From a phage: a DNA stretch of 48,243 nucleotides. Positions 1 through 48,243 of the stretch are shown in pieces (position 1 is the first letter of the stretch; each line of letters opens with the position of its first letter). A program made the translations under genes and the position numbers. Below the pieces are notes generated by a model. The model was given only the letters and a program-made list of their open reading frames with translations, was not told the origin of the DNA and did not search any database. The stretch lies in sequence record PZ150741.1, one strand, 5' to 3'.

Positions 1-35
1 GGAGATGCAACAATACAAACACCAATAAAATTTAC

Positions 36-64
36 TTGCACACTAAGATAGAATATGCTACTAT
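36..64 (+). promoter_or_regulatory. sigma70-like promoter (TTGCAC-17 bp-TACTAT)
   Basis: -35 TTGCAC at 36-41, 17-bp spacer, -10 TACTAT at 59-64; followed by conserved leader AACGAGAGGAGAGG and ATG at 95. Confidence 0.6.
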
Positions 65-94
65 TCATTTACACAAACGAGAGGAGAGGCAGAT

Positions 95-244
95 ATGGTT
101 ACTTTGATGGTTATGGAGTTCGAAAACAGCACCGCAACTTACCGCGAGATGACTATGGCGCAGGCGTATCACCTGGCCTCAAACGGCAACTTCTACAAGG
201 CCCAAATCATCAACGAGTTCGGGGTAATTGACTATGAATTTTAA
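95..244 (+). CDS. hypothetical small protein (49 aa)
   Basis: ATG at 95 preceded by GAGGAGAGG Shine-Dalgarno; stop overlaps next start (ATGA); below the 60-aa ORF-track cutoff. Confidence 0.45.
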   Translation: MVTLMVMEFENSTATYREMTMAQAYHLASNGNFYKAQIINEFGVIDYEF

Positions 245-506
245 CAGTTACACCGTTACCGTTGATTTTGAGGGGCTGGAGCTGCCCCTCCCTAACAACT
301 ACCGGTATATCTCACGCGACTGTAACGGGTTTATTCAGGGGTGGCGGAACAAACCGACAGATACTGAGTTCGGGATGTCTGGCGGGGAAGAGTTGCCGAT
401 CACTTTCGGACATCAGAGTAGCAACGAAGAACTTAAAACCGTGATTCGTAAGTATCGCCGCCGCGGTAACACCGGACTTATAGCAATAACAGGCGCGGTT
501 GAATAA
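234..506 (+). CDS. hypothetical protein (90 aa)
   Basis: Track ORF 228-506; first ATG at 234 with GGGG upstream. Confidence 0.5.
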   Translation: MNFNSYTVTVDFEGLELPLPNNYRYISRDCNGFIQGWRNKPTDTEFGMSGGEELPITFGHQSSNEELKTVIRKYRRRGNTGLIAITGAVE

Positions 507-525
507 ACGAGAGGAGAGACAGAAG

Positions 526-744
526 ATGTTCCTGGAATGCAAATCCTATGAAGGCTATTGGGCGCTGACCAAAAACGACCTGTACCACCTCAAAGAAGAC
601 GGCGACGAGAGCCGCTGCTACATAATAGACGACAATGGCACTGAACTTGATGTCTATTACACCGGGTATGGTCGATGGGCGTTATTGGCGGACGATGACT
701 TTGTGTTCGAAGAATATAACGGAGAGGAGCCAGAAGATGAGTAA
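526..744 (+). CDS. hypothetical protein (72 aa)
   Basis: Track ORF 499-744; ATG at 526 preceded by AACGAGAGGAGAGACAGAAG leader/SD. Confidence 0.5.
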   Translation: MFLECKSYEGYWALTKNDLYHLKEDGDESRCYIIDDNGTELDVYYTGYGRWALLADDDFVFEEYNGEEPEDE

Positions 745-1339
745 CAAAAACGAAGTATTAGAATACCTGATTGACCAGCTACGGCAGCAGCTACCGGTAG
801 TAGATGTAATGGGTGAAATAAAACGGTGGAGCATAGACCGTAGTATTGCTGGCCGAGGTAACTATACCGAAGAGGAAAACGCCGTAATCGATGCTTACAT
901 CGGCCTGGAGCACAACCCATACAAGCAACAGTGCGAAGACCTGGCACATGAGGTGCAGTCACTCAAGAATCAGTTACGCGACGCTTCGGCGCTGGTGGCT
1001 GAGTTACAGAGCGACAACATTAAGAAATCTGAGCACATATCGCACCTGTCGGAACTGGTGGACGAGTTGATGGGGACTATAACGTTAATGAACGGGGACG
1101 TTGAGGCTTACAAAGTTCTACGCAAAGGTGGGTACGTGCCTGAGCAATCCGGTTGCCGTAAGGACGATACCCAGGAATGCGAGCATGAGTGGCGATGTGT
1201 GGTAGTTTTTGGGAATAGACTTGGGACCCCGTATTGCCGTAAATGTGGTGCGGCTAAACCTGAAGAATGCAAGCACGAATGGCAATTTTACGGAGTCGGG
1301 TTTCCTTGTATGTGCCTTAAATGCGGGTTAAAGAAATGA
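738..1339 (+). CDS. hypothetical protein, coiled-coil N-terminus and tandem Cys-rich zinc-ribbon-like C-terminus
   Basis: Track ORF 635-1339; ATG at 738 after GGAGAGGAG SD; C-terminus has two repeats of ECxHEW...CxKCG. Confidence 0.5.
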
Positions 1340-1539
1340 CCAGCATCCTTTTTATCTGGGTACTGTCTGCAGGTCAGATGCATCTGGCGGCATCAGAAAC
1401 GTTTTACTCGATGGAGGCGTGCCGGTCAGCGGCACGCGCCGCAGAGAACGCACACTTCCTGTTTCAGGGCGACAAGCCCAACGATTCAGAGGTACGCGCT
1501 ATCTGCTCACCTAAGCGACTTGGTAAACAGGAGAAGTGA
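1336..1539 (+). CDS. hypothetical small protein with hydrophobic signal-peptide-like N-terminus
   Basis: Track ORF 1321-1539; ATG at 1336 overlaps upstream stop (ATGA); N-terminus MTSILFIWVLSAGQMHLAAS. Confidence 0.4.
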   Translation: MTSILFIWVLSAGQMHLAASETFYSMEACRSAARAAENAHFLFQGDKPNDSEVRAICSPKRLGKQEK

Positions 1540-1541
1540 TT

Positions 1542-1790
1542 ATGGTTAAATTATACGCAGAGCGCGATTTAGAAATGCTCGACATGACTAACAATTACTA
1601 TTCAAGACATGTGATGGCTATGACGGAGGAAGGATTGAACAGTAAATCATCTATCGCTGCTGAGTTGGCGTACCGTGACTGGATTATTGATGAACAGCAA
1701 AAAGAGTTACAGAAATACAAAGACCAGTTCCCGGATTACGTCGAGTGCGCGAACTGTGGGTTGGTCACACATGTGGAAGGGGTAGAGTGA
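1542..1790 (+). CDS. hypothetical protein (82 aa)
   Basis: Track ORF 1536-1790; ATG at 1542 after AGGAGAAG. Confidence 0.45.
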   Translation: MVKLYAERDLEMLDMTNNYYSRHVMAMTEEGLNSKSSIAAELAYRDWIIDEQQKELQKYKDQFPDYVECANCGLVTHVEGVE

Positions 1791-1792
1791 TT

Positions 1793-2011
1793 ATGATATT
1801 CAGAGACCGTAGCAGCTTAAGAACACCGGATTGTCCTACGTTCGAGTTCGAAGACAAAGACGGAGATGTATGCTGTATTCAATTTTATAGAGACGATGAA
1901 GGTGAGTGCGGGCTTGTAGAGTTGCAGGTTTACAGTGAAACCGGTTGTGTTGTATTAAGTGCAGATGATGCGGAATCACTAGCTCGTAAGATACTTGAGG
2001 GCGTTAAATGA
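1793..2011 (+). CDS. hypothetical protein (72 aa)
   Basis: Track ORF 1745-2011; ATG at 1793 after GAAGGGG, follows upstream stop. Confidence 0.45.
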   Translation: MIFRDRSSLRTPDCPTFEFEDKDGDVCCIQFYRDDEGECGLVELQVYSETGCVVLSADDAESLARKILEGVK

Positions 2012-2301
2012 GCCTCGCAACTGACATCCTGAAACGAAGCGGCCTTGCGCCGCTGTCACCGAGAGCGAACACCCAAATATACAAGCGCCGCCGTAATGCG
2101 CTGTACCCCGAGATTCAGGCCAGACGCAAAGCTATCCGCGCCTGTGGATTCCAGAACGGGAAGGCCGTGAATCTCGGTGAGTTTAAAACACAGGAACGCG
2201 CAGCAATCGCTAACCGGTTATTTAATTACTGGAAATCGCTGGGGTACGATGATATTCCGACGAAACCACAGAGACGACAATACATCTGGAGACACAAATA
2301 A
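2008..2301 (+). CDS. hypothetical basic protein (97 aa)
   Basis: Track ORF; start overlaps upstream stop; Arg/Lys-rich. Confidence 0.45.
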   Translation: MSLATDILKRSGLAPLSPRANTQIYKRRRNALYPEIQARRKAIRACGFQNGKAVNLGEFKTQERAAIANRLFNYWKSLGYDDIPTKPQRRQYIWRHK

Positions 2302-2376
2302 ACAACTATTAGGATAATTCCTACCCGTGGTATCCTCCAGTTACTGCATACTTAATACGCACCTGGAGGATTCATC

Positions 2377-2685
2377 TTGGATAAATTTACTGAAACAGTG
2401 ACAGGCTGGCTTCTAGCTGCCGCGCTCGCCGGAGGGGTAATCGGACTACGACAACATAAGTCCGTTATTTCTGGCCCCACCGACGGCTTCTGCTTTATTG
2501 CTACTGGCTTCACTTGCGCCGTATTTGGTGCACCTCTTGCCGCTCAATGGTTCGGAATCACGGGCGACCGTGAAATCGCCGGGTTGGGCTTCATTATCGC
2601 TGTTCTCTGGATGCCTATCTATTCCCGTCTATCCAGTATCGTAGCCGGGGAATACATCGCACGTCGAGGAGGCACAGATGAATGA
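2377..2685 (+). CDS. holin-like membrane protein (about 3 TM segments)
   Basis: TTG start after GGAGGA; three hydrophobic segments; directly upstream of second membrane protein and endolysin. Confidence 0.45.
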   Translation: MDKFTETVTGWLLAAALAGGVIGLRQHKSVISGPTDGFCFIATGFTCAVFGAPLAAQWFGITGDREIAGLGFIIAVLWMPIYSRLSSIVAGEYIARRGGTDE

Positions 2686-2950
2686 GTTATTCTGGTTCGG
2701 CGGTATGCTGGCAATCGGGGGCACATCGCTGTTTAATGTGTACCACCCCAGCGTGGACGATGGGTTATTTGGTAGGGTGCTCTATATCCTGACAGCTATC
2801 GTCTGCGCCGCCGGATGTATCCACTTGCTACAGGGCAGCATGTCCCCGACGCTGCCTGAGACGTTAATCACATTAGTTGCGCTGCGCCAGATTCGCCAGG
2901 CGTGGTTGTCATACGGAGGACATAAGCGTGTCTCGAAATATTTCAGATAA
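2678..2950 (+). CDS. holin/antiholin-like membrane protein (2 TM segments)
   Basis: Two hydrophobic helices; overlaps both neighbours in the lysis cassette. Confidence 0.45.
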   Translation: MNELFWFGGMLAIGGTSLFNVYHPSVDDGLFGRVLYILTAIVCAAGCIHLLQGSMSPTLPETLITLVALRQIRQAWLSYGGHKRVSKYFR

Positions 2951-3416
2951 TGGGTTGCATTTTACCGCTGCGTTCGAGGGATTCCGCGGAACTGCGTATC
3001 GTGCTACGCCGAACGAGAAGTACCTGACTATAGGCTATGGAAGCTACGGTCCGCATGTTAAGGCGGGGCAAACCATCACGCCTGGTCAGGGCTTACTATT
3101 ACTTAATCGCGATATGGCTAAAGCCGTAGTTGCGGTTGATGCGGCGGCGCACCACTCATTGACACAGGCGCAGTTCGATGCAGTGTGCGACCTGGTGTAT
3201 AACGCGGGTGCCGGAGTGATTGCGGCTACTACTGGCACAGGTAAGGCACTGCGTTCTGGCGATATTGCGACACTGCGGGCTAAGCTGGCGCTGTTCATCA
3301 ACCAGAACGGCAAACCGTTACTTGGCTTACGTCGTCGCGTAGCTGGTCGCCTGGCGCTGTTCGACGGTAAACCGTGGCAGGAGGCGGAGGCTATTGGACG
3401 TGCGGTGAAAGGTTGA
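2928..3416 (+). CDS. endolysin, GH24 lysozyme (T4/P22 lysozyme-like)
   Basis: GTG at 2928 after GGAGGA; motifs ISDNG, FEGF...YLTIGYG, QFDAVCDLVYNAG, RRRVAGRLALF resemble P22 gp19/T4 e lysozymes. Confidence 0.85.
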   Translation: MSRNISDNGLHFTAAFEGFRGTAYRATPNEKYLTIGYGSYGPHVKAGQTITPGQGLLLLNRDMAKAVVAVDAAAHHSLTQAQFDAVCDLVYNAGAGVIAATTGTGKALRSGDIATLRAKLALFINQNGKPLLGLRRRVAGRLALFDGKPWQEAEAIGRAVKG

Positions 3417-3480
3417 CACATAAGACTAATCCGACGATACTTAAATCACCTCCTGCTCCATCCCTCTGCTCTCCAGTTTT

Positions 3481-3512
3481 ATCCCGGCCCTGACCCAGCC
3501 GGGATTTTTTTT
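3481..3512 (+). terminator. rho-independent terminator after lysis cassette
   Basis: Hairpin ATCCCGGC-CCTGACCCA-GCCGGGAT followed by T8 run. Confidence 0.8.
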
Positions 3513-3534
3513 ATCTATTTTCTGTAATGAATAG

Positions 3535-3563
3535 TTGACTATTACTCTGACCCCAATTATATT
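3535..3563 (+). promoter_or_regulatory. sigma70-like promoter (TTGACT-17 bp-TATATT)
   Basis: Immediately downstream of terminator; followed by AACGAGAACGGAG leader and ATG at 3598. Confidence 0.55.
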
Positions 3564-3597
3564 TACTTCATCGACAACGAGAACGGAGTAGAGAGAA

Positions 3598-3846
3598 ATG
3601 GGCAACGTATCGACGATAGAAATAACCGAAGAACTCGAAGATAAATGCATCGCATGGACTATGGATAATGACCCGGTTGCTATGTGTAAATTTCCAATGA
3701 AAATCACAGATACCGAAGCATTCAAAGACGCACAACTGATGGCACGCATCGCCGTTAGTAACCTGAGCAATAGCATTCCAGCGGACGCGTTCTGGTTCGC
3801 CGCAATGCAGACACTGAAAGCAGCTTATGCAGGAGAGAAGAAATGA
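3598..3846 (+). CDS. hypothetical protein (82 aa)
   Basis: Track ORF; strong SD GGAGTAGAGAGAA. Confidence 0.5.
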   Translation: MGNVSTIEITEELEDKCIAWTMDNDPVAMCKFPMKITDTEAFKDAQLMARIAVSNLSNSIPADAFWFAAMQTLKAAYAGEKK

Positions 3847-4046
3847 ACAACGTCACCGTTGGCGGCATTTATAAGAGTCGTCACTCTTGGAATGAGGGTG
3901 CAAGATTCATTGTAACCGCGGTTGGGTTGGACCACGTGCTTATCGCGGACCACCCATTGATAAAATTCAATGAATCCTATTTGGAATATTGTGTTGGTAG
4001 AAAGGAGTTCGAGACTAAATTTAAGTTTGCAGGAGAGAAGAAATGA
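3843..4046 (+). CDS. hypothetical protein (67 aa)
   Basis: Track ORF; ATGA overlap; SD AGGAGAGAAG. Confidence 0.5.
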   Translation: MNNVTVGGIYKSRHSWNEGARFIVTAVGLDHVLIADHPLIKFNESYLEYCVGRKEFETKFKFAGEKK

Positions 4047-4201
4047 GTGAACAAGGTCAAGTAAGCCAGCCACTACGAGTAGGCCGTAAAGTCAGTCGCA
4101 CCCCGTTCCCGACACGCGAGGAACTGATGAAACGTAACAGTTTCCCGGGGCCGGACAAGAACAAGTATCTCAATCGTATGTGGGGAGAGCGTAAAGAATG
4201 A
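4043..4201 (+). CDS. hypothetical small protein (52 aa)
   Basis: ATG at 4043 after AGGAGAGAAG; ATGA overlap with next gene; below track cutoff. Confidence 0.4.
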   Translation: MSEQGQVSQPLRVGRKVSRTPFPTREELMKRNSFPGPDKNKYLNRMWGERKE

Positions 4202-4368
4202 AAAAGTTAATTGCAGATGTTGAACTCGGTGATGTTATTCGTATTGATGACGACTACGGCGGCTACGACGTAGTGGTGAAGCACATCGAGTGGGATTCTA
4301 CGTTGCCATTTGTCACGATTAACCGTGAAATAATGTTCACTAAAACTGATTGGGTAGAGGTTCGATAA
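4198..4368 (+). CDS. hypothetical small protein (56 aa)
   Basis: ATG at 4198 after GGGGAGAG; below track cutoff. Confidence 0.4.
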   Translation: MKKLIADVELGDVIRIDDDYGGYDVVVKHIEWDSTLPFVTINREIMFTKTDWVEVR

Positions 4369-4541
4369 TGACTAACAACGAATACGAGAAACTTAGCGTA
4401 GAAGCGGCGACCGGTGAATCTGAAATAGCGTGGATTGACGCCAACATCGAGCACTACCTACGGCAAGTAGACATCCTTATGGAACGCCGCCGTGAACTGA
4501 TTAACCGCTTCAACCTGAACAAAGGTGACGCCAATGCCTAA
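4368..4541 (+). CDS. hypothetical protein (57 aa)
   Basis: Track ORF 4350-4541; ATG at 4368 overlaps upstream TAA. Confidence 0.45.
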   Translation: MTNNEYEKLSVEAATGESEIAWIDANIEHYLRQVDILMERRRELINRFNLNKGDANA

Positions 4542-4719
4542 AATCACAATTGCATCACTAGAGCGCCGTATTCTGGTGCTCGAGTCAGAGAAACAGACGT
4601 TAGGCGGTCAACTGTCGATTAACGGCGAGTTTCAACTGGAGGCGTTTAAGATGCTACTTGAACGCATGAAGGACGAGGAAGATTGGGCGCATTCCTTGCA
4701 AGACCTCTGGCAATACTAA
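4534..4719 (+). CDS. hypothetical coiled-coil protein (61 aa)
   Basis: Track ORF 4525-4719; ATG at 4534 after AAAGGTGA. Confidence 0.45.
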   Translation: MPKITIASLERRILVLESEKQTLGGQLSINGEFQLEAFKMLLERMKDEEDWAHSLQDLWQY

Positions 4720-5630: not shown

Positions 5631-5724
5631 GTACATCCCGCCCAATCCCCTTATATAATCCCTTTAGACGCGTAGGGCGCGTCTGGTGCGCTCTGATGGT
5701 CAGACGCATATGCAAGGGGATTCT

Positions 5725-7529: not shown

Positions 7530-9011
7530 ATGTTAACTATGAACGGTCAGAATCAGGGTGTTAAGACTAAACACCGGGAATGGCTGCATCACTTCGATAA
7601 ATGGCAGAAGGTGCGTCACGCGCTGGAAGGCGACCTTATTCGCTATCTTCGCAACGTCGGGAAGAATGAACCCGACCCGACCTACGCGGCCCAGCGCCAG
7701 GAAGAATACGAGAATGGCGCTATCTGCTACAACTTCACTAAACGTACCCTGGCGGGGATGGTCGGCAGTGTCATGCGCAAAGACCCTGAACAGATTATTC
7801 CGCCTGAACTTGAGTACCTGTTGCGCAATGCTGACGGTTCAGGCGTCGGGCTGTGGCAGCACGCGCAGGATACTTTGATGGAGATTGACTCGGTAGGCCG
7901 TGGCGGGTTGCTGGTGGACGCCCCGGAGACAGCAGCGGCAACGGCAGCAGAACAGAACGCTGGATTATTAAACCCGGTCATCGCATTCTACACCGCAGAG
8001 AACATCATAAACTGGCGACTGACCCGAGTCGGGTCAGTTAACCGTGTGACAATGGTCGTGTTGCGTGAGGCGTGGGAATACTCAGAACCGGGTGCAGAGT
8101 TCGAAACAAAGTTCGGTGAGCAATATCGTGTCCTTGACCTGATTGAAGGCCGCTACCGCCAGCGCATTTACCGCTTTGACGCTGAAGGTGGCGCTCAGGG
8201 GGATGTAATCGAAATATTCCCTGAACTTGGTGAACAGTTGCGCGGCAAAATCCCGTTCACGTTCATTGGGGCAAGCAACAACGATGCGACCATTGACGAT
8301 GCGCCTTTGCTGCCGTTGGCTGAGCTTAATATCGGGCATTTCCGCAACAGCGCAGACAATGAGGAGTCCAGTTTCGTTGTGGGTCAGCCCACTCTGTTCA
8401 TCGCCCCGGGTGGGAATATGAGCATGGAGCAATGGAAAGAAGCCAACCCACACGGGGTACGCATGGGGTCGCGTTCAGGCCATAACATCGGTGAGGGCGG
8501 CAACGCGTTTCTGGTTCAGGCAGGAGAGAACAACCTCGCCAAACAAAACATGCTGGATAAAGAGAATCAGGCAATCCAGATTGGCGCGCAGCTTATCACC
8601 CCGACGCAGCAAATCACCGCTGAATCGGCCCGTCTGCAACGTGGTGCTGACACGTCCGTTATGGCGACAATCGCGCGTAACGTAAGCATGGCGTACACCG
8701 ATGCGTTGCGCTGGGTGGCTGCGATGCTAGGGCTGCGTGAAGGTACAGAGGTTGAATTCAAGCTGAATATGGAGTTCTTCCTGCAACCGATGACCGCTCA
8801 GGACCGCGCTCAGTGGATGGCAGATATTAACGCAGGTCTGTTACCGGCTACCGCTTACTATGCTGCGTTGCGCAAGGCGGGTGTAACTGACTGGACGGAC
8901 GAGGATATTCAGAACGCTATTGAGGATGCACCTCTGCCGTTGGGTGCTGTTACCCAAGTATCCGGAGAAATTCCGCAGTCGGCGAAGCCACAGGTCACCA
9001 CTCAGCAGTAA
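7530..9011 (+). CDS. portal protein
   Basis: 493-aa ORF directly after terL and before MuF-like gene; canonical position and size. Confidence 0.75.
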   Translation: MLTMNGQNQGVKTKHREWLHHFDKWQKVRHALEGDLIRYLRNVGKNEPDPTYAAQRQEEYENGAICYNFTKRTLAGMVGSVMRKDPEQIIPPELEYLLRNADGSGVGLWQHAQDTLMEIDSVGRGGLLVDAPETAAATAAEQNAGLLNPVIAFYTAENIINWRLTRVGSVNRVTMVVLREAWEYSEPGAEFETKFGEQYRVLDLIEGRYRQRIYRFDAEGGAQGDVIEIFPELGEQLRGKIPFTFIGASNNDATIDDAPLLPLAELNIGHFRNSADNEESSFVVGQPTLFIAPGGNMSMEQWKEANPHGVRMGSRSGHNIGEGGNAFLVQAGENNLAKQNMLDKENQAIQIGAQLITPTQQITAESARLQRGADTSVMATIARNVSMAYTDALRWVAAMLGLREGTEVEFKLNMEFFLQPMTAQDRAQWMADINAGLLPATAYYAALRKAGVTDWTDEDIQNAIEDAPLPLGAVTQVSGEIPQSAKPQVTTQQ

Positions 9012-9021
9012 GTTCACCTAT

Positions 9022-9044
9022 AGCCCCGAAAGGGGCTTTCTTAT
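9022..9044 (+). terminator. hairpin AGCCCC-GAAA-GGGGCT plus T-rich tail
   Basis: Perfect 6-bp GC stem with GAAA tetraloop after portal stop. Confidence 0.5.
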
Positions 9045-9047
9045 AGT

Positions 9048-10124
9048 ATGCTATTAACTTTAGCGCCACAGGGTTTATCTATGAGCTTACTTACATCCCT
9101 AATCAGCCACCAGATTTGGCTGCAACGCACCGCATCAGGCGAGGTGAAAGACCTCGCACCGTTCATTCAGGAAATGCGAGACGAAATCAAACGGCAGGTG
9201 CTGTTGTTCGGTGACGACGGGCGAAGCACTGCGCGGCTGAATAAACTATTACGCGACCTGGAAGAAGCACTGACCGGACTTACAGGTGACTGGCAGACAA
9301 AGCTGATAGAAGACCTTAAGGAACTGGCGGCGTATGAAGCAGAGTGGAACGTAAAGACACTGGCAGCCAACGTAGATGCGGAATTTGTTACGCCTACCGC
9401 TGAACAGGTGTGGGCCGCTGCCGAGTTTCAGCCATTATCGTTAAGCGACAAGCCTGTTGACTTCACTAAGCTGATGTCGGGATGGGGTGAAACCGAAATA
9501 GCACGTCTTGTAACCGGCGTTAAGATGGGCTTTGTCCAAGGCCAGACTACACGGCAGATTGTTAAGAATGTTGTTGGCGCCGGCGGGCTGGCGGACATCA
9601 CTGAACGTAATGCAGCTACGGTAATCCGCACCGCGCTGTCTCACGTATCCAACGAAGCGCGTAACGAGACGTATAGGCAGAACGACGACATCATCGAGAA
9701 ATATGAATGGGTTTCGACGCTGGACAGCCGTACCAGTACGATTTGCAGGGCCAGAGATGGAATGACGTGGGAAATCGATAAAGGGCCGATACCCCCCGCC
9801 CATCCGAACTGTCGAAGTACCACTGCACCCGTAATAAGTTCTGAGTTCGACTTCCTCGATAAAGGGGCGAAACGCGCGGCTAAGGGCGCAGACGGCGGTA
9901 CTCAGGTAAGCGCAGATACCACTTATTACGAGTTCCTGAAACAGCAACCGGCGTGGTTTCAGGACCAGGCGCTCGGCCCTGTTCGCGGTAAGATTTTCCG
10001 TAACAGCGGTATATCGCCGGAAGAGTTTCGCGTAATATCTGTAGATGGTTTCGGGAATCCGCTCACGCTTAAGCAGATGGCGGAACTCGATAAACGTGTT
10101 GCTGATTATCTGAAAGGGGATTAA
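9048..10124 (+). CDS. head morphogenesis protein (Mu F / SPP1 gp7-like)
   Basis: Conserved C-terminal motif STICRARDG...PPAHPNCRST typical of the MuF family; position after portal. Confidence 0.8.
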   Translation: MLLTLAPQGLSMSLLTSLISHQIWLQRTASGEVKDLAPFIQEMRDEIKRQVLLFGDDGRSTARLNKLLRDLEEALTGLTGDWQTKLIEDLKELAAYEAEWNVKTLAANVDAEFVTPTAEQVWAAAEFQPLSLSDKPVDFTKLMSGWGETEIARLVTGVKMGFVQGQTTRQIVKNVVGAGGLADITERNAATVIRTALSHVSNEARNETYRQNDDIIEKYEWVSTLDSRTSTICRARDGMTWEIDKGPIPPAHPNCRSTTAPVISSEFDFLDKGAKRAAKGADGGTQVSADTTYYEFLKQQPAWFQDQALGPVRGKIFRNSGISPEEFRVISVDGFGNPLTLKQMAELDKRVADYLKGD

Positions 10125-43495: not shown

Positions 43496-43530
43496 TTACG
43501 CTGCTACACAGCAGCGTATCATTTTTCTCA
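43496..43530 (+). terminator. rho-independent terminator ACGCTGC-TACACA-GCAGCGT plus T-runs
   Basis: 7-bp stem followed by ATCATTTTTCTCATTTTT; immediately upstream of repeat/promoter. Confidence 0.7.
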
Positions 43531-43611
43531 TTTTTGTTCTATTTCACGAAACGCAACAATTGAAGCTACTATTGCAGGAGATGCAACAATACAAACACCA
43601 ATAAAATTTAC

Positions 43612-43640
43612 TTGCACACTAAGATAGAATATGCTACTAT
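43612..43640 (+). promoter_or_regulatory. sigma70-like promoter, copy of 36-64
   Basis: Duplicate within repeat. Confidence 0.6.
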
Positions 43641-43670
43641 TCATTTACACAAACGAGAGGAGAGGCAGAT

Positions 43671-43820
43671 ATGGTTACTTTGATGGTTATGGAGTTCGAA
43701 AACAGCACCGCAACTTACCGCGAGATGACTATGGCGCAGGCGTATCACCTGGCCTCAAACGGCAACTTCTACAAGGCCCAAATCATCAACGAGTTCGGGG
43801 TAATTGACTATGAATTTTAA
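43671..43820 (+). CDS. hypothetical small protein (copy of 95-244)
   Basis: Duplicate within repeat. Confidence 0.45.
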   Translation: MVTLMVMEFENSTATYREMTMAQAYHLASNGNFYKAQIINEFGVIDYEF

Positions 43821-44082
43821 CAGTTACACCGTTACCGTTGATTTTGAGGGGCTGGAGCTGCCCCTCCCTAACAACTACCGGTATATCTCACGCGACTGTA
43901 ACGGGTTTATTCAGGGGTGGCGGAACAAACCGACAGATACTGAGTTCGGGATGTCTGGCGGGGAAGAGTTGCCGATCACTTTCGGACATCAGAGTAGCAA
44001 CGAAGAACTTAAAACCGTGATTCGTAAGTATCGCCGCCGCGGTAACACCGGACTTATAGCAATAACAGGCGCGGTTGAATAA
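43810..44082 (+). CDS. hypothetical protein (copy of 234-506)
   Basis: Duplicate within repeat. Confidence 0.5.
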   Translation: MNFNSYTVTVDFEGLELPLPNNYRYISRDCNGFIQGWRNKPTDTEFGMSGGEELPITFGHQSSNEELKTVIRKYRRRGNTGLIAITGAVE

Positions 44083-44101
44083 ACGAGAGGAGAGACAGAA
44101 G

Positions 44102-44320
44102 ATGTTCCTGGAATGCAAATCCTATGAAGGCTATTGGGCGCTGACCAAAAACGACCTGTACCACCTCAAAGAAGACGGCGACGAGAGCCGCTGCTACATA
44201 ATAGACGACAATGGCACTGAACTTGATGTCTATTACACCGGGTATGGTCGATGGGCGTTATTGGCGGACGATGACTTTGTGTTCGAAGAATATAACGGAG
44301 AGGAGCCAGAAGATGAGTAA
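44102..44320 (+). CDS. hypothetical protein (copy of 526-744)
   Basis: Duplicate within repeat. Confidence 0.5.
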   Translation: MFLECKSYEGYWALTKNDLYHLKEDGDESRCYIIDDNGTELDVYYTGYGRWALLADDDFVFEEYNGEEPEDE

Positions 44321-44915
44321 CAAAAACGAAGTATTAGAATACCTGATTGACCAGCTACGGCAGCAGCTACCGGTAGTAGATGTAATGGGTGAAATAAAAC
44401 GGTGGAGCATAGACCGTAGTATTGCTGGCCGAGGTAACTATACCGAAGAGGAAAACGCCGTAATCGATGCTTACATCGGCCTGGAGCACAACCCATACAA
44501 GCAACAGTGCGAAGACCTGGCACATGAGGTGCAGTCACTCAAGAATCAGTTACGCGACGCTTCGGCGCTGGTGGCTGAGTTACAGAGCGACAACATTAAG
44601 AAATCTGAGCACATATCGCACCTGTCGGAACTGGTGGACGAGTTGATGGGGACTATAACGTTAATGAACGGGGACGTTGAGGCTTACAAAGTTCTACGCA
44701 AAGGTGGGTACGTGCCTGAGCAATCCGGTTGCCGTAAGGACGATACCCAGGAATGCGAGCATGAGTGGCGATGTGTGGTAGTTTTTGGGAATAGACTTGG
44801 GACCCCGTATTGCCGTAAATGTGGTGCGGCTAAACCTGAAGAATGCAAGCACGAATGGCAATTTTACGGAGTCGGGTTTCCTTGTATGTGCCTTAAATGC
44901 GGGTTAAAGAAATGA
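44314..44915 (+). CDS. zinc-ribbon-like protein (copy of 738-1339)
   Basis: Duplicate within repeat. Confidence 0.5.
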
Positions 44916-45115
44916 CCAGCATCCTTTTTATCTGGGTACTGTCTGCAGGTCAGATGCATCTGGCGGCATCAGAAACGTTTTACTCGATGGAGGCGTGCCG
45001 GTCAGCGGCACGCGCCGCAGAGAACGCACACTTCCTGTTTCAGGGCGACAAGCCCAACGATTCAGAGGTACGCGCTATCTGCTCACCTAAGCGACTTGGT
45101 AAACAGGAGAAGTGA
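44912..45115 (+). CDS. hypothetical small protein (copy of 1336-1539)
   Basis: Duplicate within repeat. Confidence 0.4.
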   Translation: MTSILFIWVLSAGQMHLAASETFYSMEACRSAARAAENAHFLFQGDKPNDSEVRAICSPKRLGKQEK

Positions 45116-45117
45116 TT

Positions 45118-45366
45118 ATGGTTAAATTATACGCAGAGCGCGATTTAGAAATGCTCGACATGACTAACAATTACTATTCAAGACATGTGATGGCTATGAC
45201 GGAGGAAGGATTGAACAGTAAATCATCTATCGCTGCTGAGTTGGCGTACCGTGACTGGATTATTGATGAACAGCAAAAAGAGTTACAGAAATACAAAGAC
45301 CAGTTCCCGGATTACGTCGAGTGCGCGAACTGTGGGTTGGTCACACATGTGGAAGGGGTAGAGTGA
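45118..45366 (+). CDS. hypothetical protein (copy of 1542-1790)
   Basis: Duplicate within repeat. Confidence 0.45.
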   Translation: MVKLYAERDLEMLDMTNNYYSRHVMAMTEEGLNSKSSIAAELAYRDWIIDEQQKELQKYKDQFPDYVECANCGLVTHVEGVE

Positions 45367-45368
45367 TT

Positions 45369-45587
45369 ATGATATTCAGAGACCGTAGCAGCTTAAGAAC
45401 ACCGGATTGTCCTACGTTCGAGTTCGAAGACAAAGACGGAGATGTATGCTGTATTCAATTTTATAGAGACGATGAAGGTGAGTGCGGGCTTGTAGAGTTG
45501 CAGGTTTACAGTGAAACCGGTTGTGTTGTATTAAGTGCAGATGATGCGGAATCACTAGCTCGTAAGATACTTGAGGGCGTTAAATGA
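45369..45587 (+). CDS. hypothetical protein (copy of 1793-2011)
   Basis: Duplicate within repeat. Confidence 0.45.
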   Translation: MIFRDRSSLRTPDCPTFEFEDKDGDVCCIQFYRDDEGECGLVELQVYSETGCVVLSADDAESLARKILEGVK

Positions 45588-45877
45588 GCCTCGCAACTGA
45601 CATCCTGAAACGAAGCGGCCTTGCGCCGCTGTCACCGAGAGCGAACACCCAAATATACAAGCGCCGCCGTAATGCGCTGTACCCCGAGATTCAGGCCAGA
45701 CGCAAAGCTATCCGCGCCTGTGGATTCCAGAACGGGAAGGCCGTGAATCTCGGTGAGTTTAAAACACAGGAACGCGCAGCAATCGCTAACCGGTTATTTA
45801 ATTACTGGAAATCGCTGGGGTACGATGATATTCCGACGAAACCACAGAGACGACAATACATCTGGAGACACAAATAA
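45584..45877 (+). CDS. hypothetical basic protein (copy of 2008-2301)
   Basis: Duplicate within repeat. Confidence 0.45.
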   Translation: MSLATDILKRSGLAPLSPRANTQIYKRRRNALYPEIQARRKAIRACGFQNGKAVNLGEFKTQERAAIANRLFNYWKSLGYDDIPTKPQRRQYIWRHK

Positions 45878-45952
45878 ACAACTATTAGGATAATTCCTAC
45901 CCGTGGTATCCTCCAGTTACTGCATACTTAATACGCACCTGGAGGATTCATC

Positions 45953-46261
45953 TTGGATAAATTTACTGAAACAGTGACAGGCTGGCTTCTAGCTGCCGCG
46001 CTCGCCGGAGGGGTAATCGGACTACGACAACATAAGTCCGTTATTTCTGGCCCCACCGACGGCTTCTGCTTTATTGCTACTGGCTTCACTTGCGCCGTAT
46101 TTGGTGCACCTCTTGCCGCTCAATGGTTCGGAATCACGGGCGACCGTGAAATCGCCGGGTTGGGCTTCATTATCGCTGTTCTCTGGATGCCTATCTATTC
46201 CCGTCTATCCAGTATCGTAGCCGGGGAATACATCGCACGTCGAGGAGGCACAGATGAATGA
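45953..46261 (+). CDS. holin-like membrane protein (copy of 2377-2685)
   Basis: Duplicate within repeat. Confidence 0.45.
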   Translation: MDKFTETVTGWLLAAALAGGVIGLRQHKSVISGPTDGFCFIATGFTCAVFGAPLAAQWFGITGDREIAGLGFIIAVLWMPIYSRLSSIVAGEYIARRGGTDE

Positions 46262-46526
46262 GTTATTCTGGTTCGGCGGTATGCTGGCAATCGGGGGCAC
46301 ATCGCTGTTTAATGTGTACCACCCCAGCGTGGACGATGGGTTATTTGGTAGGGTGCTCTATATCCTGACAGCTATCGTCTGCGCCGCCGGATGTATCCAC
46401 TTGCTACAGGGCAGCATGTCCCCGACGCTGCCTGAGACGTTAATCACATTAGTTGCGCTGCGCCAGATTCGCCAGGCGTGGTTGTCATACGGAGGACATA
46501 AGCGTGTCTCGAAATATTTCAGATAA
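46254..46526 (+). CDS. holin/antiholin-like membrane protein (copy of 2678-2950)
   Basis: Duplicate within repeat. Confidence 0.45.
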   Translation: MNELFWFGGMLAIGGTSLFNVYHPSVDDGLFGRVLYILTAIVCAAGCIHLLQGSMSPTLPETLITLVALRQIRQAWLSYGGHKRVSKYFR

Positions 46527-46990
46527 TGGGTTGCATTTTACCGCTGCGTTCGAGGGATTCCGGAACTGCGTATCGTGCTACGCCGAACGAGAAGTACCTG
46601 ACTATAGGCTATGGAAGCTACGGTCCGCATGTTAAGGCGGGGCAAACCATCACGCCTGGTCAGGGCTTACTATTACTTAATCGCGATATGGCTAAAGCCG
46701 TAGTTGCGGTTGATGCGGCGGCGCACCACTCATTGACACAGGCGCAGTTCGATGCAGTGTGCGACCTGGTGTATAACGCGGGTGCCGGAGTGATTGCGGC
46801 TACTACTGGCACAGGTAAGGCACTGCGTTCTGGCGATATTGCGACACTGCGGGCTAAGCTGGCGCTGTTCATCAACCAGAACGGCAAACCGTTACTTGGC
46901 TTACGTCGTCGCGTAGCTGGTCGCCTGGCGCTGTTCGACGGTAAACCGTGGCAGGAGGCGGAGGCTATTGGACGTGCGGTGAAAGGTTGA
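46504..46990 (+). pseudogene. endolysin copy disrupted by 2-bp deletion (frameshift)
   Basis: Relative to 2928-3416, CGCG becomes CG at 46561; reading frame breaks after FEGFR; track splits it into 46453-46635 and 46526-46990. Confidence 0.8.
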
Positions 46991-47054
46991 CACATAAGAC
47001 TAATCCGACGATACTTAAATCACCTCCTGCTCCATCCCTCTGCTCTCCAGTTTT

Positions 47055-47085
47055 ATCCCGGCCCTGACCCAGCCGGGATTTTTTT
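47055..47085 (+). terminator. terminator copy with T7 instead of T8
   Basis: Same hairpin as 3481-3512, one T shorter. Confidence 0.8.
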
Positions 47086-47107
47086 ATCTATTTTCTGTAA
47101 TGAATAG

Positions 47108-47136
47108 TTGACTATTACTCTGACCCCAATTATATT
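47108..47136 (+). promoter_or_regulatory. sigma70-like promoter, copy of 3535-3563
   Basis: Duplicate within repeat. Confidence 0.55.
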
Positions 47137-47170
47137 TACTTCATCGACAACGAGAACGGAGTAGAGAGAA

Positions 47171-47419
47171 ATGGGCAACGTATCGACGATAGAAATAACC
47201 GAAGAACTCGAAGATAAATGCATCGCATGGACTATGGATAATGACCCGGTTGCTATGTGTAAATTTCCAATGAAAATCACAGATACCGAAGCATTCAAAG
47301 ACGCACAACTGATGGCACGCATCGCCGTTAGTAACCTGAGCAATAGCATTCCAGCGGACGCGTTCTGGTTCGCCGCAATGCAGACACTGAAAGCAGCTTA
47401 TGCAGGAGAGAAGAAATGA
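47171..47419 (+). CDS. hypothetical protein (copy of 3598-3846)
   Basis: Duplicate within repeat. Confidence 0.5.
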   Translation: MGNVSTIEITEELEDKCIAWTMDNDPVAMCKFPMKITDTEAFKDAQLMARIAVSNLSNSIPADAFWFAAMQTLKAAYAGEKK

Positions 47420-47619
47420 ACAACGTCACCGTTGGCGGCATTTATAAGAGTCGTCACTCTTGGAATGAGGGTGCAAGATTCATTGTAACCGCGGTTGGGT
47501 TGGACCACGTGCTTATCGCGGACCACCCATTGATAAAATTCAATGAATCCTATTTGGAATATTGTGTTGGTAGAAAGGAGTTCGAGACTAAATTTAAGTT
47601 TGCAGGAGAGAAGAAATGA
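47416..47619 (+). CDS. hypothetical protein (copy of 3843-4046)
   Basis: Duplicate within repeat. Confidence 0.5.
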   Translation: MNNVTVGGIYKSRHSWNEGARFIVTAVGLDHVLIADHPLIKFNESYLEYCVGRKEFETKFKFAGEKK

Positions 47620-47774
47620 GTGAACAAGGTCAAGTAAGCCAGCCACTACGAGTAGGCCGTAAAGTCAGTCGCACCCCGTTCCCGACACGCGAGGAACTGA
47701 TGAAACGTAACAGTTTCCCGGGGCCGGACAAGAACAAGTATCTCAATCGTATGTGGGGAGAGCGTAAAGAATGA
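47616..47774 (+). CDS. hypothetical small protein (copy of 4043-4201)
   Basis: Duplicate within repeat. Confidence 0.4.
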   Translation: MSEQGQVSQPLRVGRKVSRTPFPTREELMKRNSFPGPDKNKYLNRMWGERKE

Positions 47775-47941
47775 AAAAGTTAATTGCAGATGTTGAACTC
47801 GGTGATGTTATTCGTATTGATGACGACTACGGCGGCTACGACGTAGTGGTGAAGCACATCGAGTGGGATTCTACGTTGCCATTTGTCACGATTAACCGTG
47901 AAATAATGTTCACTAAAACTGATTGGGTAGAGGTTCGATAA
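47771..47941 (+). CDS. hypothetical small protein (copy of 4198-4368)
   Basis: Duplicate within repeat. Confidence 0.4.
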   Translation: MKKLIADVELGDVIRIDDDYGGYDVVVKHIEWDSTLPFVTINREIMFTKTDWVEVR

Positions 47942-48114
47942 TGACTAACAACGAATACGAGAAACTTAGCGTAGAAGCGGCGACCGGTGAATCTGAAATA
48001 GCGTGGATTGACGCCAACATCGAGCACTACCTACGGCAAGTAGACATCCTTATGGAACGCCGCCGTGAACTGATTAACCGCTTCAACCTGAACAAAGGTG
48101 ACGCCAATGCCTAA
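47941..48114 (+). CDS. hypothetical protein (copy of 4368-4541)
   Basis: Duplicate within repeat. Confidence 0.45.
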   Translation: MTNNEYEKLSVEAATGESEIAWIDANIEHYLRQVDILMERRRELINRFNLNKGDANA

Positions 48115-48243
48115 AATCACAATTGCATCACTAGAGCGCCGTATTCTGGTGCTCGAGTCAGAGAAACAGACGTTAGGCGGTCAACTGTCGATTAACGGCG
48201 AGTTTCAACTGGAGGCGTTTAAGATGCTACTTGAACGCATGAA
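48107..48243 (+). CDS. hypothetical protein, 3'-truncated by window end (copy of 4534-4719)
   Basis: Duplicate within repeat; ORF runs off the window. Confidence 0.4.
   Translation, partial: MPKITIASLERRILVLESEKQTLGGQLSINGEFQLEAFKMLLERM

Follow-up and report, generated by a model that had tools for sequence, protein, structure and literature searches.

Introduction

What kind of protein is encoded by the small gene at positions 737 to 1339 of phage sequence record PZ150741.1, and what might it do during infection? The window analyzed here is the whole 48,243-nucleotide (nt) stretch of that record. An initial annotation, made from the sequence alone, had described the gene product as an early protein with a coiled coil and a duplicated, Cys-rich, zinc-ribbon-like C-terminus, possibly directed at a host nucleic-acid or protein complex. 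We found this interpretation partly supported, with zinc binding likely. The gene belongs to a Kagunavirus-like virulent siphophage and is a new allele of an existing, uncharacterized Guernseyvirinae accessory family (PHROG 6094).

Putative Zinc-Ribbon Modules

The C-terminal tail of the protein carries two candidate zinc-ribbon modules, each built from a C-x-H knuckle followed by a C-x-x-C-G knuckle (Table 1). Both motifs quoted in the initial annotation were recovered from the sequence (ECEHEWRCVVVFGNRLGTPYCRKCG at residues 147–171 and ECKHEWQFYGVGFPCMCLKCG at residues 177–197), and the four Cys/His candidates per motif that it counted correspond to a C-H-C-C set in each module. In two sets of 20,000 shuffles, one of the whole protein and one restricted to the Cys-rich tail, the pattern C.H.{10,30}C..CG never occurred twice. 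Across all six frames of the 43.6-kb genome, the same pattern was found only at positions 1178–1249 and 1268–1327. Two additional cysteines in the tail, C154 and C191, were not conserved among homologues.

To examine ligand conservation without relying on the ligands themselves, we searched an ungapped window for the non-ligand core of 12 module types, which yielded 167 instances. Loss of the cysteines among homologues, which had been named as the observation that would count against a metal site, is not what we found, as CHCC occupied the four ligand positions in 158 of the 167 modules. Both first-knuckle ligands were lost in six modules of one type (C to W and H to Y, giving WYCC). Of the remaining three, which showed isolated deviations, one reflects an indel that the ungapped window could not accommodate. 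When 28 diverse two-module tails were aligned, the only invariant module residues were C, H, C, C, and G, in both modules. The consensus of 184 unique modules was E-C-x-H-x-W...C-x-K-C-G with an inter-knuckle part that varied in sequence and length, and none of the surface residues was conserved beyond the zinc scaffold. Invariance confined to the ligands and the glycine is the pattern expected of structural metal sites. The comparison thus gives zinc binding good support, and we strongly infer that each module binds one structural zinc.

Structure prediction, proposed earlier as a check, gave a hairpin for one module of the two. In a full-length AlphaFold2 model (111 homologues in the input, mean predicted local distance difference test score (pLDDT) of 83), a beta hairpin was placed between the knuckles of module 1, with strands at residues 152–157 and 160–167 (pLDDT ~80), and module 2 was modeled with short strands only.

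The tandem duplication described in the initial annotation holds as two copies of a motif and fails as a recent event. Module 1 is of the 'RCVVVFGNRLGTPY' type (RCVVVFGN type), which is mostly internal in the family, and module 2 is of the QFYGVGF type, which was the C-terminal-most module in 47 of 47 cases. Each type was also found with other partners, and by this comparison the two are paralogous modules of different types rather than products of a recent tandem duplication.

Helical Scaffold and Linker

The modules are preceded by a largely helical region. AlphaFold2 predicted helices at residues 2–18, 24–38, 45–58, 61–118, and 122–132, followed by a disordered stretch at 135–141 and the module 1 hairpin. 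The coiled coil that had been proposed to precede the Cys-rich C-terminus was confirmed by unbroken heptads and by the continuous helix at residues 61–118 (pLDDT > 90). Within residues 61–132, read in a single phase, heptad a/d positions were 76% hydrophobic compared to 37.5% overall, and the phase ran without interruption from Y62 to Y125, the heptad coiled coil as a whole being placed at residues 62–129. The DNA of the coil is divided into a conserved island (923–1000) and a variable cassette (1001–1090). The helical cassette at residues 19–58 is missing in some family members and present inside unrelated mosaic phage proteins. Linker DNA is conserved at ~90% in 29 of 42 related loci and is likely a recombination joint between cassettes.

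More than 90% of homologues retain two cysteines that lie outside the modules, C66 (nt 932–934) and C140 (nt 1154–1156). The first occupies a core a/d heptad position at the start of the coil, and the second sits in the disordered linker; these residues could form an inter-chain disulfide or an extra metal site.

Cassette Exchange in the Family

Comparison of homologues pointed to evolution by exchange of whole blocks. Among 176 family proteins, we identified 38 module types in 66 arrangements, with a single type found beside up to nine different partner types. Position bias was strong, since RFVNGKAP modules were internal in 32 of 33 cases in addition to the invariably terminal QFYGVGF type. 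The pair present here (RCVVVFGN type followed by QFYGVGF type) occurred in seven of the 176. Family tails contained zero to three zinc-ribbon modules or a beta-rich W-x-x-W-x-G-G-x-C-P-V-P domain. Upstream, residues 19–58 were present or absent as a block, other helical blocks were inserted at repeated LRQQ or SLKNQL junctions, and the middle of the coil existed in alternative versions.

The same pattern was visible in the DNA. Isolate phages covered at most 52% of the gene at the DNA level, and its flanks were ~90% identical. A survey of 42 related loci, in which a locus was counted if it matched at least 60% of a segment, separated conserved islands from variable blocks (Table 1). Conserved islands flanking variable blocks are the expected product of homologous recombination between co-infecting relatives. 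The architecture and the cassette pattern of the family are shown by these sequence comparisons, which indicate that it evolves by cassette exchange.

Several observations on individual blocks accompany this pattern. The alternative C-terminal block (~65 residues, W-x-x-W-x-G-G-x-C-P-V-P...D-I-V-x-Y-R, beta-rich) belongs to PHROGs 9174 and 26870, both of unknown function. It replaces or accompanies the ribbons in P0036, P0038, P0108, P0120, P0064, and locus L044 and is absent from the allele in the window. In two IMG/VR loci, L020 and L034, the homologue (2501 onward) is fused in frame to the ends of neighboring genes. The L020 homologue runs into the 17 C-terminal residues of the gene downstream (...SEVRAICSPKRLGKQEK), and the L034 homologue is joined to the end of the next-but-one gene, exactly at a shared C-(D/A)-N-C-G motif (...CDNCGSVTHVEGVE). 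To judge by these junctions, the fusions are deletion and recombination events at module motifs.

The cassette at residues 19–58 (consensus VDVMxEIKRWxIDRxxxGRxNYTxxxNxxIDAYxG, positions 791–910) is optional in the family and recurs in unrelated mosaic proteins (also at locus L006, 3001–3807). Three proteins, P0231, P0242, and P0251, matched the family profile at this cassette only (E = 3e-10 for P0242). The closest full-length phage relatives of P0242 are annotated 'Ea22' in several E. coli phages, and these relatives themselves lack the cassette. In the temperate phage SKA5, the one case inspected, the 'Ea22' gene lies in an accessory region and adjoins the EaE and exodeoxyribonuclease VIII genes. 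These matches suggest that the cassette has been exchanged between accessory genes of virulent and temperate phages.

Family Membership and Distribution

The protein matched the PHROG 6094 profile over residues 1–183 (E = 6.4e-44). In a large protein collection, 1206 homologues of 133–257 amino acids (aa) were found at E ≤ 1e-3, and an exhaustive profile search recovered 718 representatives at the same threshold. The exact protein sequence was not present in a collection of 15 billion proteins. A tblastn search returned 319 phage records with the protein, almost all of them belonging to Salmonella or Escherichia phages of Kagunavirus or Jerseyvirus type. Members such as Bas70_0066, vB_EcoS-Ro145clw_00047, and fPoEco01 PE1_060 are annotated 'hypothetical protein', and the same genomic position, a small-gene operon upstream of the holins and endolysin, was occupied in Bas70, Ro145clw, KMB35, and fPoEco01. 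More distant relatives with another N-terminus and the same cassette, linker, and ribbons were found in Salmonella phages such as St162, Shemara, and SE1. In these searches, PHROG 6094 was found only in Guernseyvirinae phages and at one syntenic site 5' of the lysis cassette.

Other database comparisons were largely negative. Pfam, NCBIfam, and PADLOC, scanned with the complete protein, with its tail, and with variant homologues, gave only sub-threshold coiled-coil matches, which among the PADLOC defense profiles were to LmuB, DndD, and JetA. PDB sequence matches of the full-length and tail profiles involved coiled coils or out-of-register Cys/His patterns and were rejected as compositional; these included BST2, T7 gp5.9 (E ~ 0.05), PRDM9 C2H2 arrays, and PKC C1 domains. 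DksA/TraR and an Rz-like spanin were likewise rejected; a weak match to phrog_6197 (E = 0.17) stems from the coiled coil. Reading the sequence by eye, with no predictor run, revealed no transmembrane segment, and Rfam identified no known RNA on either strand of positions 1–3000. Literature searches on PHROG 6094, on Guernseyvirinae and zinc, and on Kagunavirus anti-defense returned no description of the protein, no characterized relative was found, and no description of a cassette-shuffled ribbon array on a coiled-coil chassis was found in the literature searched.

Gene Model, Operon, and Genome Context

The reading frame is open from 635 to 1339 in the list of open reading frames (ORFs), and its biological start is the ATG at 737. 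We take this ATG as the true start because it follows the ribosome-binding site GGAGAGGAG and because every homologue begins with MSNKNEV. The initial annotation had the right gene and placed its start one base too late, at 738, in a frame that contains 15 stops. With a ribosome-binding site, an open frame, and 1206 homologues that also hold open frames, the ORF is a real gene.

Table 1. Coordinates of the gene, its parts, and flanking features, and conservation of DNA segments in the survey of 42 related loci.
Feature	Position	Strand	Basis or conservation
Target coding sequence, 200 aa and TGA stop, PHROG 6094 member	737..1339	+	Sequence, ORF list, profile match, homologues
Second copy of the coding sequence, identical	44313..44915	+	Arises from the window wrapping round the permuted genome
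Shine-Dalgarno-like GGAGAGGAG	721..729	+	7 nt 5' of ATG 737; read from sequence
N-terminal helix, residues 1–18 (MSNKNEVLEYLIDQLRQQ)	737..790	+	Near-invariant in close-family alignment; AlphaFold2 helix 2–18
Optional helical cassette, residues 19–58 (LPVVDVMGEIKRWSIDRSIAGRGNYTEEENAVIDAYIGLEH)	791..910	+	AlphaFold2 helices 24–38 and 45–58; block indels among homologues
Predicted coiled-coil stalk, residues 61–132	917..1132	+	Heptad analysis; AlphaFold2 helices 61–118 and 122–132
Predicted flexible linker, residues 133–147 (GGYVPEQSGCRKDDTQE)	1133..1177	+	pLDDT < 50 at 135–141; E136–D144 near-invariant
Putative zinc-ribbon module 1, residues 148–171, ligands C148/H150/C167/C170, then G171	1178..1249	+	Motif, ligand conservation, AlphaFold2 hairpin
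Putative zinc-ribbon module 2, residues 178–197, ligands C178/H180/C193/C196, then G197	1268..1327	+	Motif, ligand conservation
Downstream small ORF, hydrophobic N-terminus, phrog_3766 (function unknown)	1336..1539	+	Start overlaps target stop; ~93% nt identity in 39/42 loci
DNA segment: N-terminal part, residues 1–62	737–922		6/42 loci
DNA segment: coil start	923–1000		42/42 loci; biased, loci retrieved with peptides from this segment
DNA segment: coil middle	1001–1090		0/42 loci
DNA segment: linker	1141–1180		29/42 loci, ~90% identical
DNA segment: module 1	1181–1255		0/42 loci
DNA segment: module 2	1256–1339		6/42 loci
DNA segment: downstream gene g5	1340–1539		39/42 loci, ~93% identical

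About eight small same-strand ORFs lie between a terminator-like hairpin (43497–43518) and the holin, endolysin, and terminase genes, and the gene is the fourth of them. The ATGA at 1336–1339 contains both its stop codon and the start of the following ORF. All neighbors in this operon are small ORFs in PHROGs of unknown function, within a mosaic region. The ORF at 1542–1790 (+ strand) ends in ...ECANCGLVTHVEGVE, and its halves match different PHROGs (phrog_34533 and phrog_29624); from these matches it appears to be mosaic and to carry half a zinc-module motif.

The timing of expression was also considered, given that the initial annotation had called the protein early. No + strand terminator was predicted to separate the gene from the lysis and terminase genes, and sigma-70-like promoter sites were no commoner than in shuffled sequence. 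The only Kagunavirus time-course is an RNA sequencing (RNA-seq) study of vB_Eco_K1B4 with a Glimmer annotation, in which 4 of 57 genes were classed as early (PMC12645636). That annotation contains gaps in the small-ORF operon 5' of the lysis genes, for example at 8399–8797 and 9000–9632 (PMC12645636, table S2). The homologous ORF is not annotated there, a gap lying where it would be expected, and temporal classes for genes of this operon cannot be drawn from that study. Literature on Jerseyvirus RNA-seq held nothing relevant to the timing of this gene. The label 'early' is thus unsupported, being neither backed nor excluded.

Positions 1–4667 of the window equal positions 43577–48243 apart from two indels, and the window is therefore one circularly permuted genome of ~43,576 bp with a 4.67-kb wrap. 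The two copies differ by a 2-bp CG at 2985–2986, which is missing from the second copy, and by one T in a poly-T run at 3505. The CG indel falls inside the endolysin gene (~2930–3416 in the first copy and ~46504–46990 in the second). The first copy is intact (VSRNISDNGLHFTAAFEGFRGTAYRATP...) and resembles the Ro145clw and fPoEco01 endolysins. The second loses its frame after ...FEGFR, which points to an error in the assembly or reads or to heterogeneity in the population. The first 6 kb of the window showed ~90% nt identity to Kagunavirus (Guernseyvirinae) phages of E. coli, such as vB_EcoS-Ro145clw, KMB35, and fPoEco01, and related matches extended to several hundred Salmonella and Escherichia phages.

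Proposed Function and Alternatives

We propose that the protein is a non-enzymatic accessory adaptor that forms oligomers and presents exchangeable zinc-ribbon heads for binding. This reading commands about half of our confidence, and any specific target far less. The adaptor would consist of five parts, namely the conserved N-terminal helix, the optional helical cassette, a parallel coiled-coil stalk, the flexible conserved linker, and two independently folding CHCC ribbons of ~25 residues each. In each ribbon, a single structural zinc would be bound by the C-x-H and C-x-x-C-G knuckles on either side of a beta hairpin. The stalk would oligomerize the protein as a parallel coiled coil with C66 in its core, so that the constant N-terminal and coil part would provide oligomerization and perhaps an invariant contact. 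The conserved DNA islands (coil start, EQSGCRKEDTQ linker, and downstream gene) would serve as homology arms, between which coil segments and zinc-ribbon modules would be swapped, gained, and lost. The exchangeable heads may bind a variable macromolecular target during infection, with proteins of the host or of competitors more probable than a shared nucleic-acid ligand, and the protein may act as an accessory host-takeover or counter-defense factor. A dispensable host-interaction role is suggested by the module-less forms and by the place of the gene in a mosaic accessory operon. A genome-reduction study of phage seszw was rejected as evidence on essentiality, as seszw is a Skatevirus and not a relative. 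We infer the adaptor function, the oligomeric state, and the class of target.

Some observations weigh against this proposal. AlphaFold2 modeled the isolated tail with a pLDDT of only 64. Several neighbors of the gene are equally mosaic, with g3 matched in 2 of the 42 surveyed loci and g6 in none, and the hypervariability may thus reflect regional recombinogenic plasticity rather than selection on this protein. In addition, a published study describes Kagunavirus phages as highly sensitive to restriction-modification (PMC11990801), which makes a broad anti-restriction role unlikely.

The initial annotation had left a choice between a host nucleic-acid complex and a protein complex as target, and either would still be a conjecture. 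A nucleic-acid-binding regulator, in which a dimeric coil places the ribbons as reading heads on DNA or RNA, either to control lysis or late genes or to bind single-stranded DNA, would fit several features of the gene. Zinc ribbons are often nucleic-acid binders, and tandem zinc ribbons bind single-stranded DNA in topoisomerase I. Both modules of this allele are mildly basic and aromatic-rich (isoelectric points (pI) of 8.0 and 8.5), and the gene lies just 5' of the lysis cassette with no predicted terminator between them. Across the family, however, the net charge of modules ranged from −5 to +6 (mean +0.9), and the remainder of the protein was acidic (family mean charge −5.5; pI 5.4 for the whole target protein). 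Forms with zero to three modules and 38 unrelated module surfaces coexist, which is hard to square with an essential sequence-specific regulator, and no match to DNA-binding families emerged from the Pfam and NCBIfam scans. We consider such a regulator unlikely; with charge this heterogeneous and no conserved surface residue, varied protein targets fit better than one nucleic-acid ligand. The three-part design and C-terminal diversity described for lambdoid Ea22 (PMC10834534, PMC7093339) raise a different alternative, a functional analogue or distant relative of Ea22/Ead that modulates the outcome of infection via a host partner, and the residue 19–58 cassette links the family to P0242 and its 'Ea22'-annotated relatives. 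Lambda Ea22 itself, however, matched PF13935 at 1e-28, whereas the target did not match even at E ≤ 10, and hhalign gave a probability of 0.6% between the family profile and lambda Ea22. The SKA5 'Ea22' has neither the cassette nor PF13935. What ties the family to these proteins is therefore a shared mobile cassette; membership in the Ea22 family is ruled out by the Pfam and hhalign tests. A pro-lysogenic phenotype would also be meaningless in a virulent phage, and we regard the Ea22-like alternative as very unlikely.

A constant anchor, a coiled-coil shaft, and swappable C-terminal tips are also the design of a receptor-binding fiber, and the coiled coil weakly matched the scaffold protein PF06810 (E = 0.057) and virion and tail PHROGs (E = 0.09–0.34). 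The gene for this hypothetical virion-associated or assembly protein, though, lies among small accessory ORFs outside the morphogenesis module (terminase at 5686 through the tail genes to ~29.2 kb), and in Kagunavirus the genes for the receptor-binding tailspikes lie downstream of the one for the J-like central tail fiber (PMC11990801). The structural matches were all sub-threshold and limited to the coiled coil, and no receptor-binding tip is known to consist of a 25-residue Cys/His zinc ribbon; we find a virion role extremely improbable. We give equally little credence to a functionless, recombination-scrambled remnant of a plastic region, for which the mosaic state of the whole operon and the truncated forms, module-less forms, and fusions to neighbors could be cited. 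A remnant would not be expected to hold an open frame at a fixed syntenic site in more than 1200 distinct homologues, to keep its ligands in 95% of modules amid variable surroundings, to maintain its heptad register, or to retain a ribosome-binding site and an overlap with the start of a conserved downstream gene.

Implications

Taken singly, this gene encodes an ordinary uncharacterized phage accessory protein, and the pattern across the family is of more interest. The family is a compact natural case of domain shuffling, in which 25-residue ribbons are exchangeable on a fixed coil scaffold. A bolder extension of the adaptor proposal is a combinatorial binder system of virulent enterobacterial phages, in which a constant oligomeric coil chassis would carry mini zinc-ribbon heads from a common pool (at least 38, and the beta-rich domain besides), assorted by recombination at the conserved linker DNA, giving each phage its own specificities against variable host defense or competitor proteins. 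We regard this extension as a long shot; if true, it would be a protein-level analogue of tail-fiber tip swapping that acts inside the cell. Hundreds of alleles exist in phages under development for therapy and synthetic biology. If the heads are specificity determinants against host factors, the family would offer a tractable system for mapping phage-host protein interfaces, and small binders could be engineered on its natural scaffold. If the heads have no such role, the gene would be a safe deletion candidate in genome minimization.

Comparison with Known Systems

Relative to other members of PHROG 6094, the protein shares the syntenic site (from the small-ORF cluster to the holin genes), the N-terminal helix, the start of the coil, and the linker, and it differs in sequence, with the best isolate-phage match only 59–63% identical, and in the rarity of its module pair. 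The resemblance to Ead/Ea22 (PF13935) is one of design only. Both have an N-terminal region, a coil, and a variable C-terminus and lie in a non-essential accessory region. Lambda Ea22, the product of an early-transcribed gene, has a short N-terminal domain, a tetramerizing coiled coil, and a diverse C-terminal domain, and it favors lysogeny by way of an unknown host partner (PMC10834534, PMC7093339). Its C-terminal domain, for which a nuclear magnetic resonance structure is available (PMC10834534), is an alpha/beta dimer domain, whereas the C-terminus here is a putative zinc-ribbon array. DksA/TraR (PF01258) proteins, which are small and acidic and sometimes phage-encoded, likewise combine a coiled coil with a Cys-rich zinc site. 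They differ in that DksA forms an antiparallel hairpin with one C4 finger packed on the coil, compared to one continuous 58-residue helix in the AlphaFold2 model and two CHCC modules on a flexible linker, and Pfam scans of the target gave no PF01258 match.

The closest likeness in the modules themselves is to the zinc ribbon fold, as in the C4 ribbon of the Lar family and the tandem ribbons of topoisomerase I. Ligand pairs are 13–27 residues apart, a Gly follows the second knuckle, a hairpin is predicted between the knuckles, and the array is tandem on flexible linkers. Unlike those ribbons, the first knuckle is C-x-H (CHCC) rather than C-P-x-C-G, and a Trp is conserved at H+2; hidden Markov model and fold comparisons of the target gave no match to named zinc-ribbon families. 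A similar core was found in secreted Firmicutes proteins, which carry 5–13 tandem repeats of G-H-x-W-x-x-A-T-C-x-x-P-x-x-C-x-x-C-G. Examples are P0163 (transglutaminase and dockerin domains), P0185 (DUF6273), and ~80 other long proteins; the group is extracellular and carries signal peptides. These proteins matched the family profile at E = 1e-24 to 1e-9, values that are summed over many repeats, single repeats scoring weakly. The repeats share the H-x-W...C-x-x-C-G core, the H-to-CxxC spacing (13 residues in module 2), and the tandem arrangement with the phage modules, and differ in that the fourth ligand is a mid-repeat Cys instead of the Cys of C-x-H. Homology between the Firmicutes repeats and the phage modules is possible on this basis, and both may form part of a broader superfamily of mini zinc ribbons with an H-x-W...C-x-x-C-G core.

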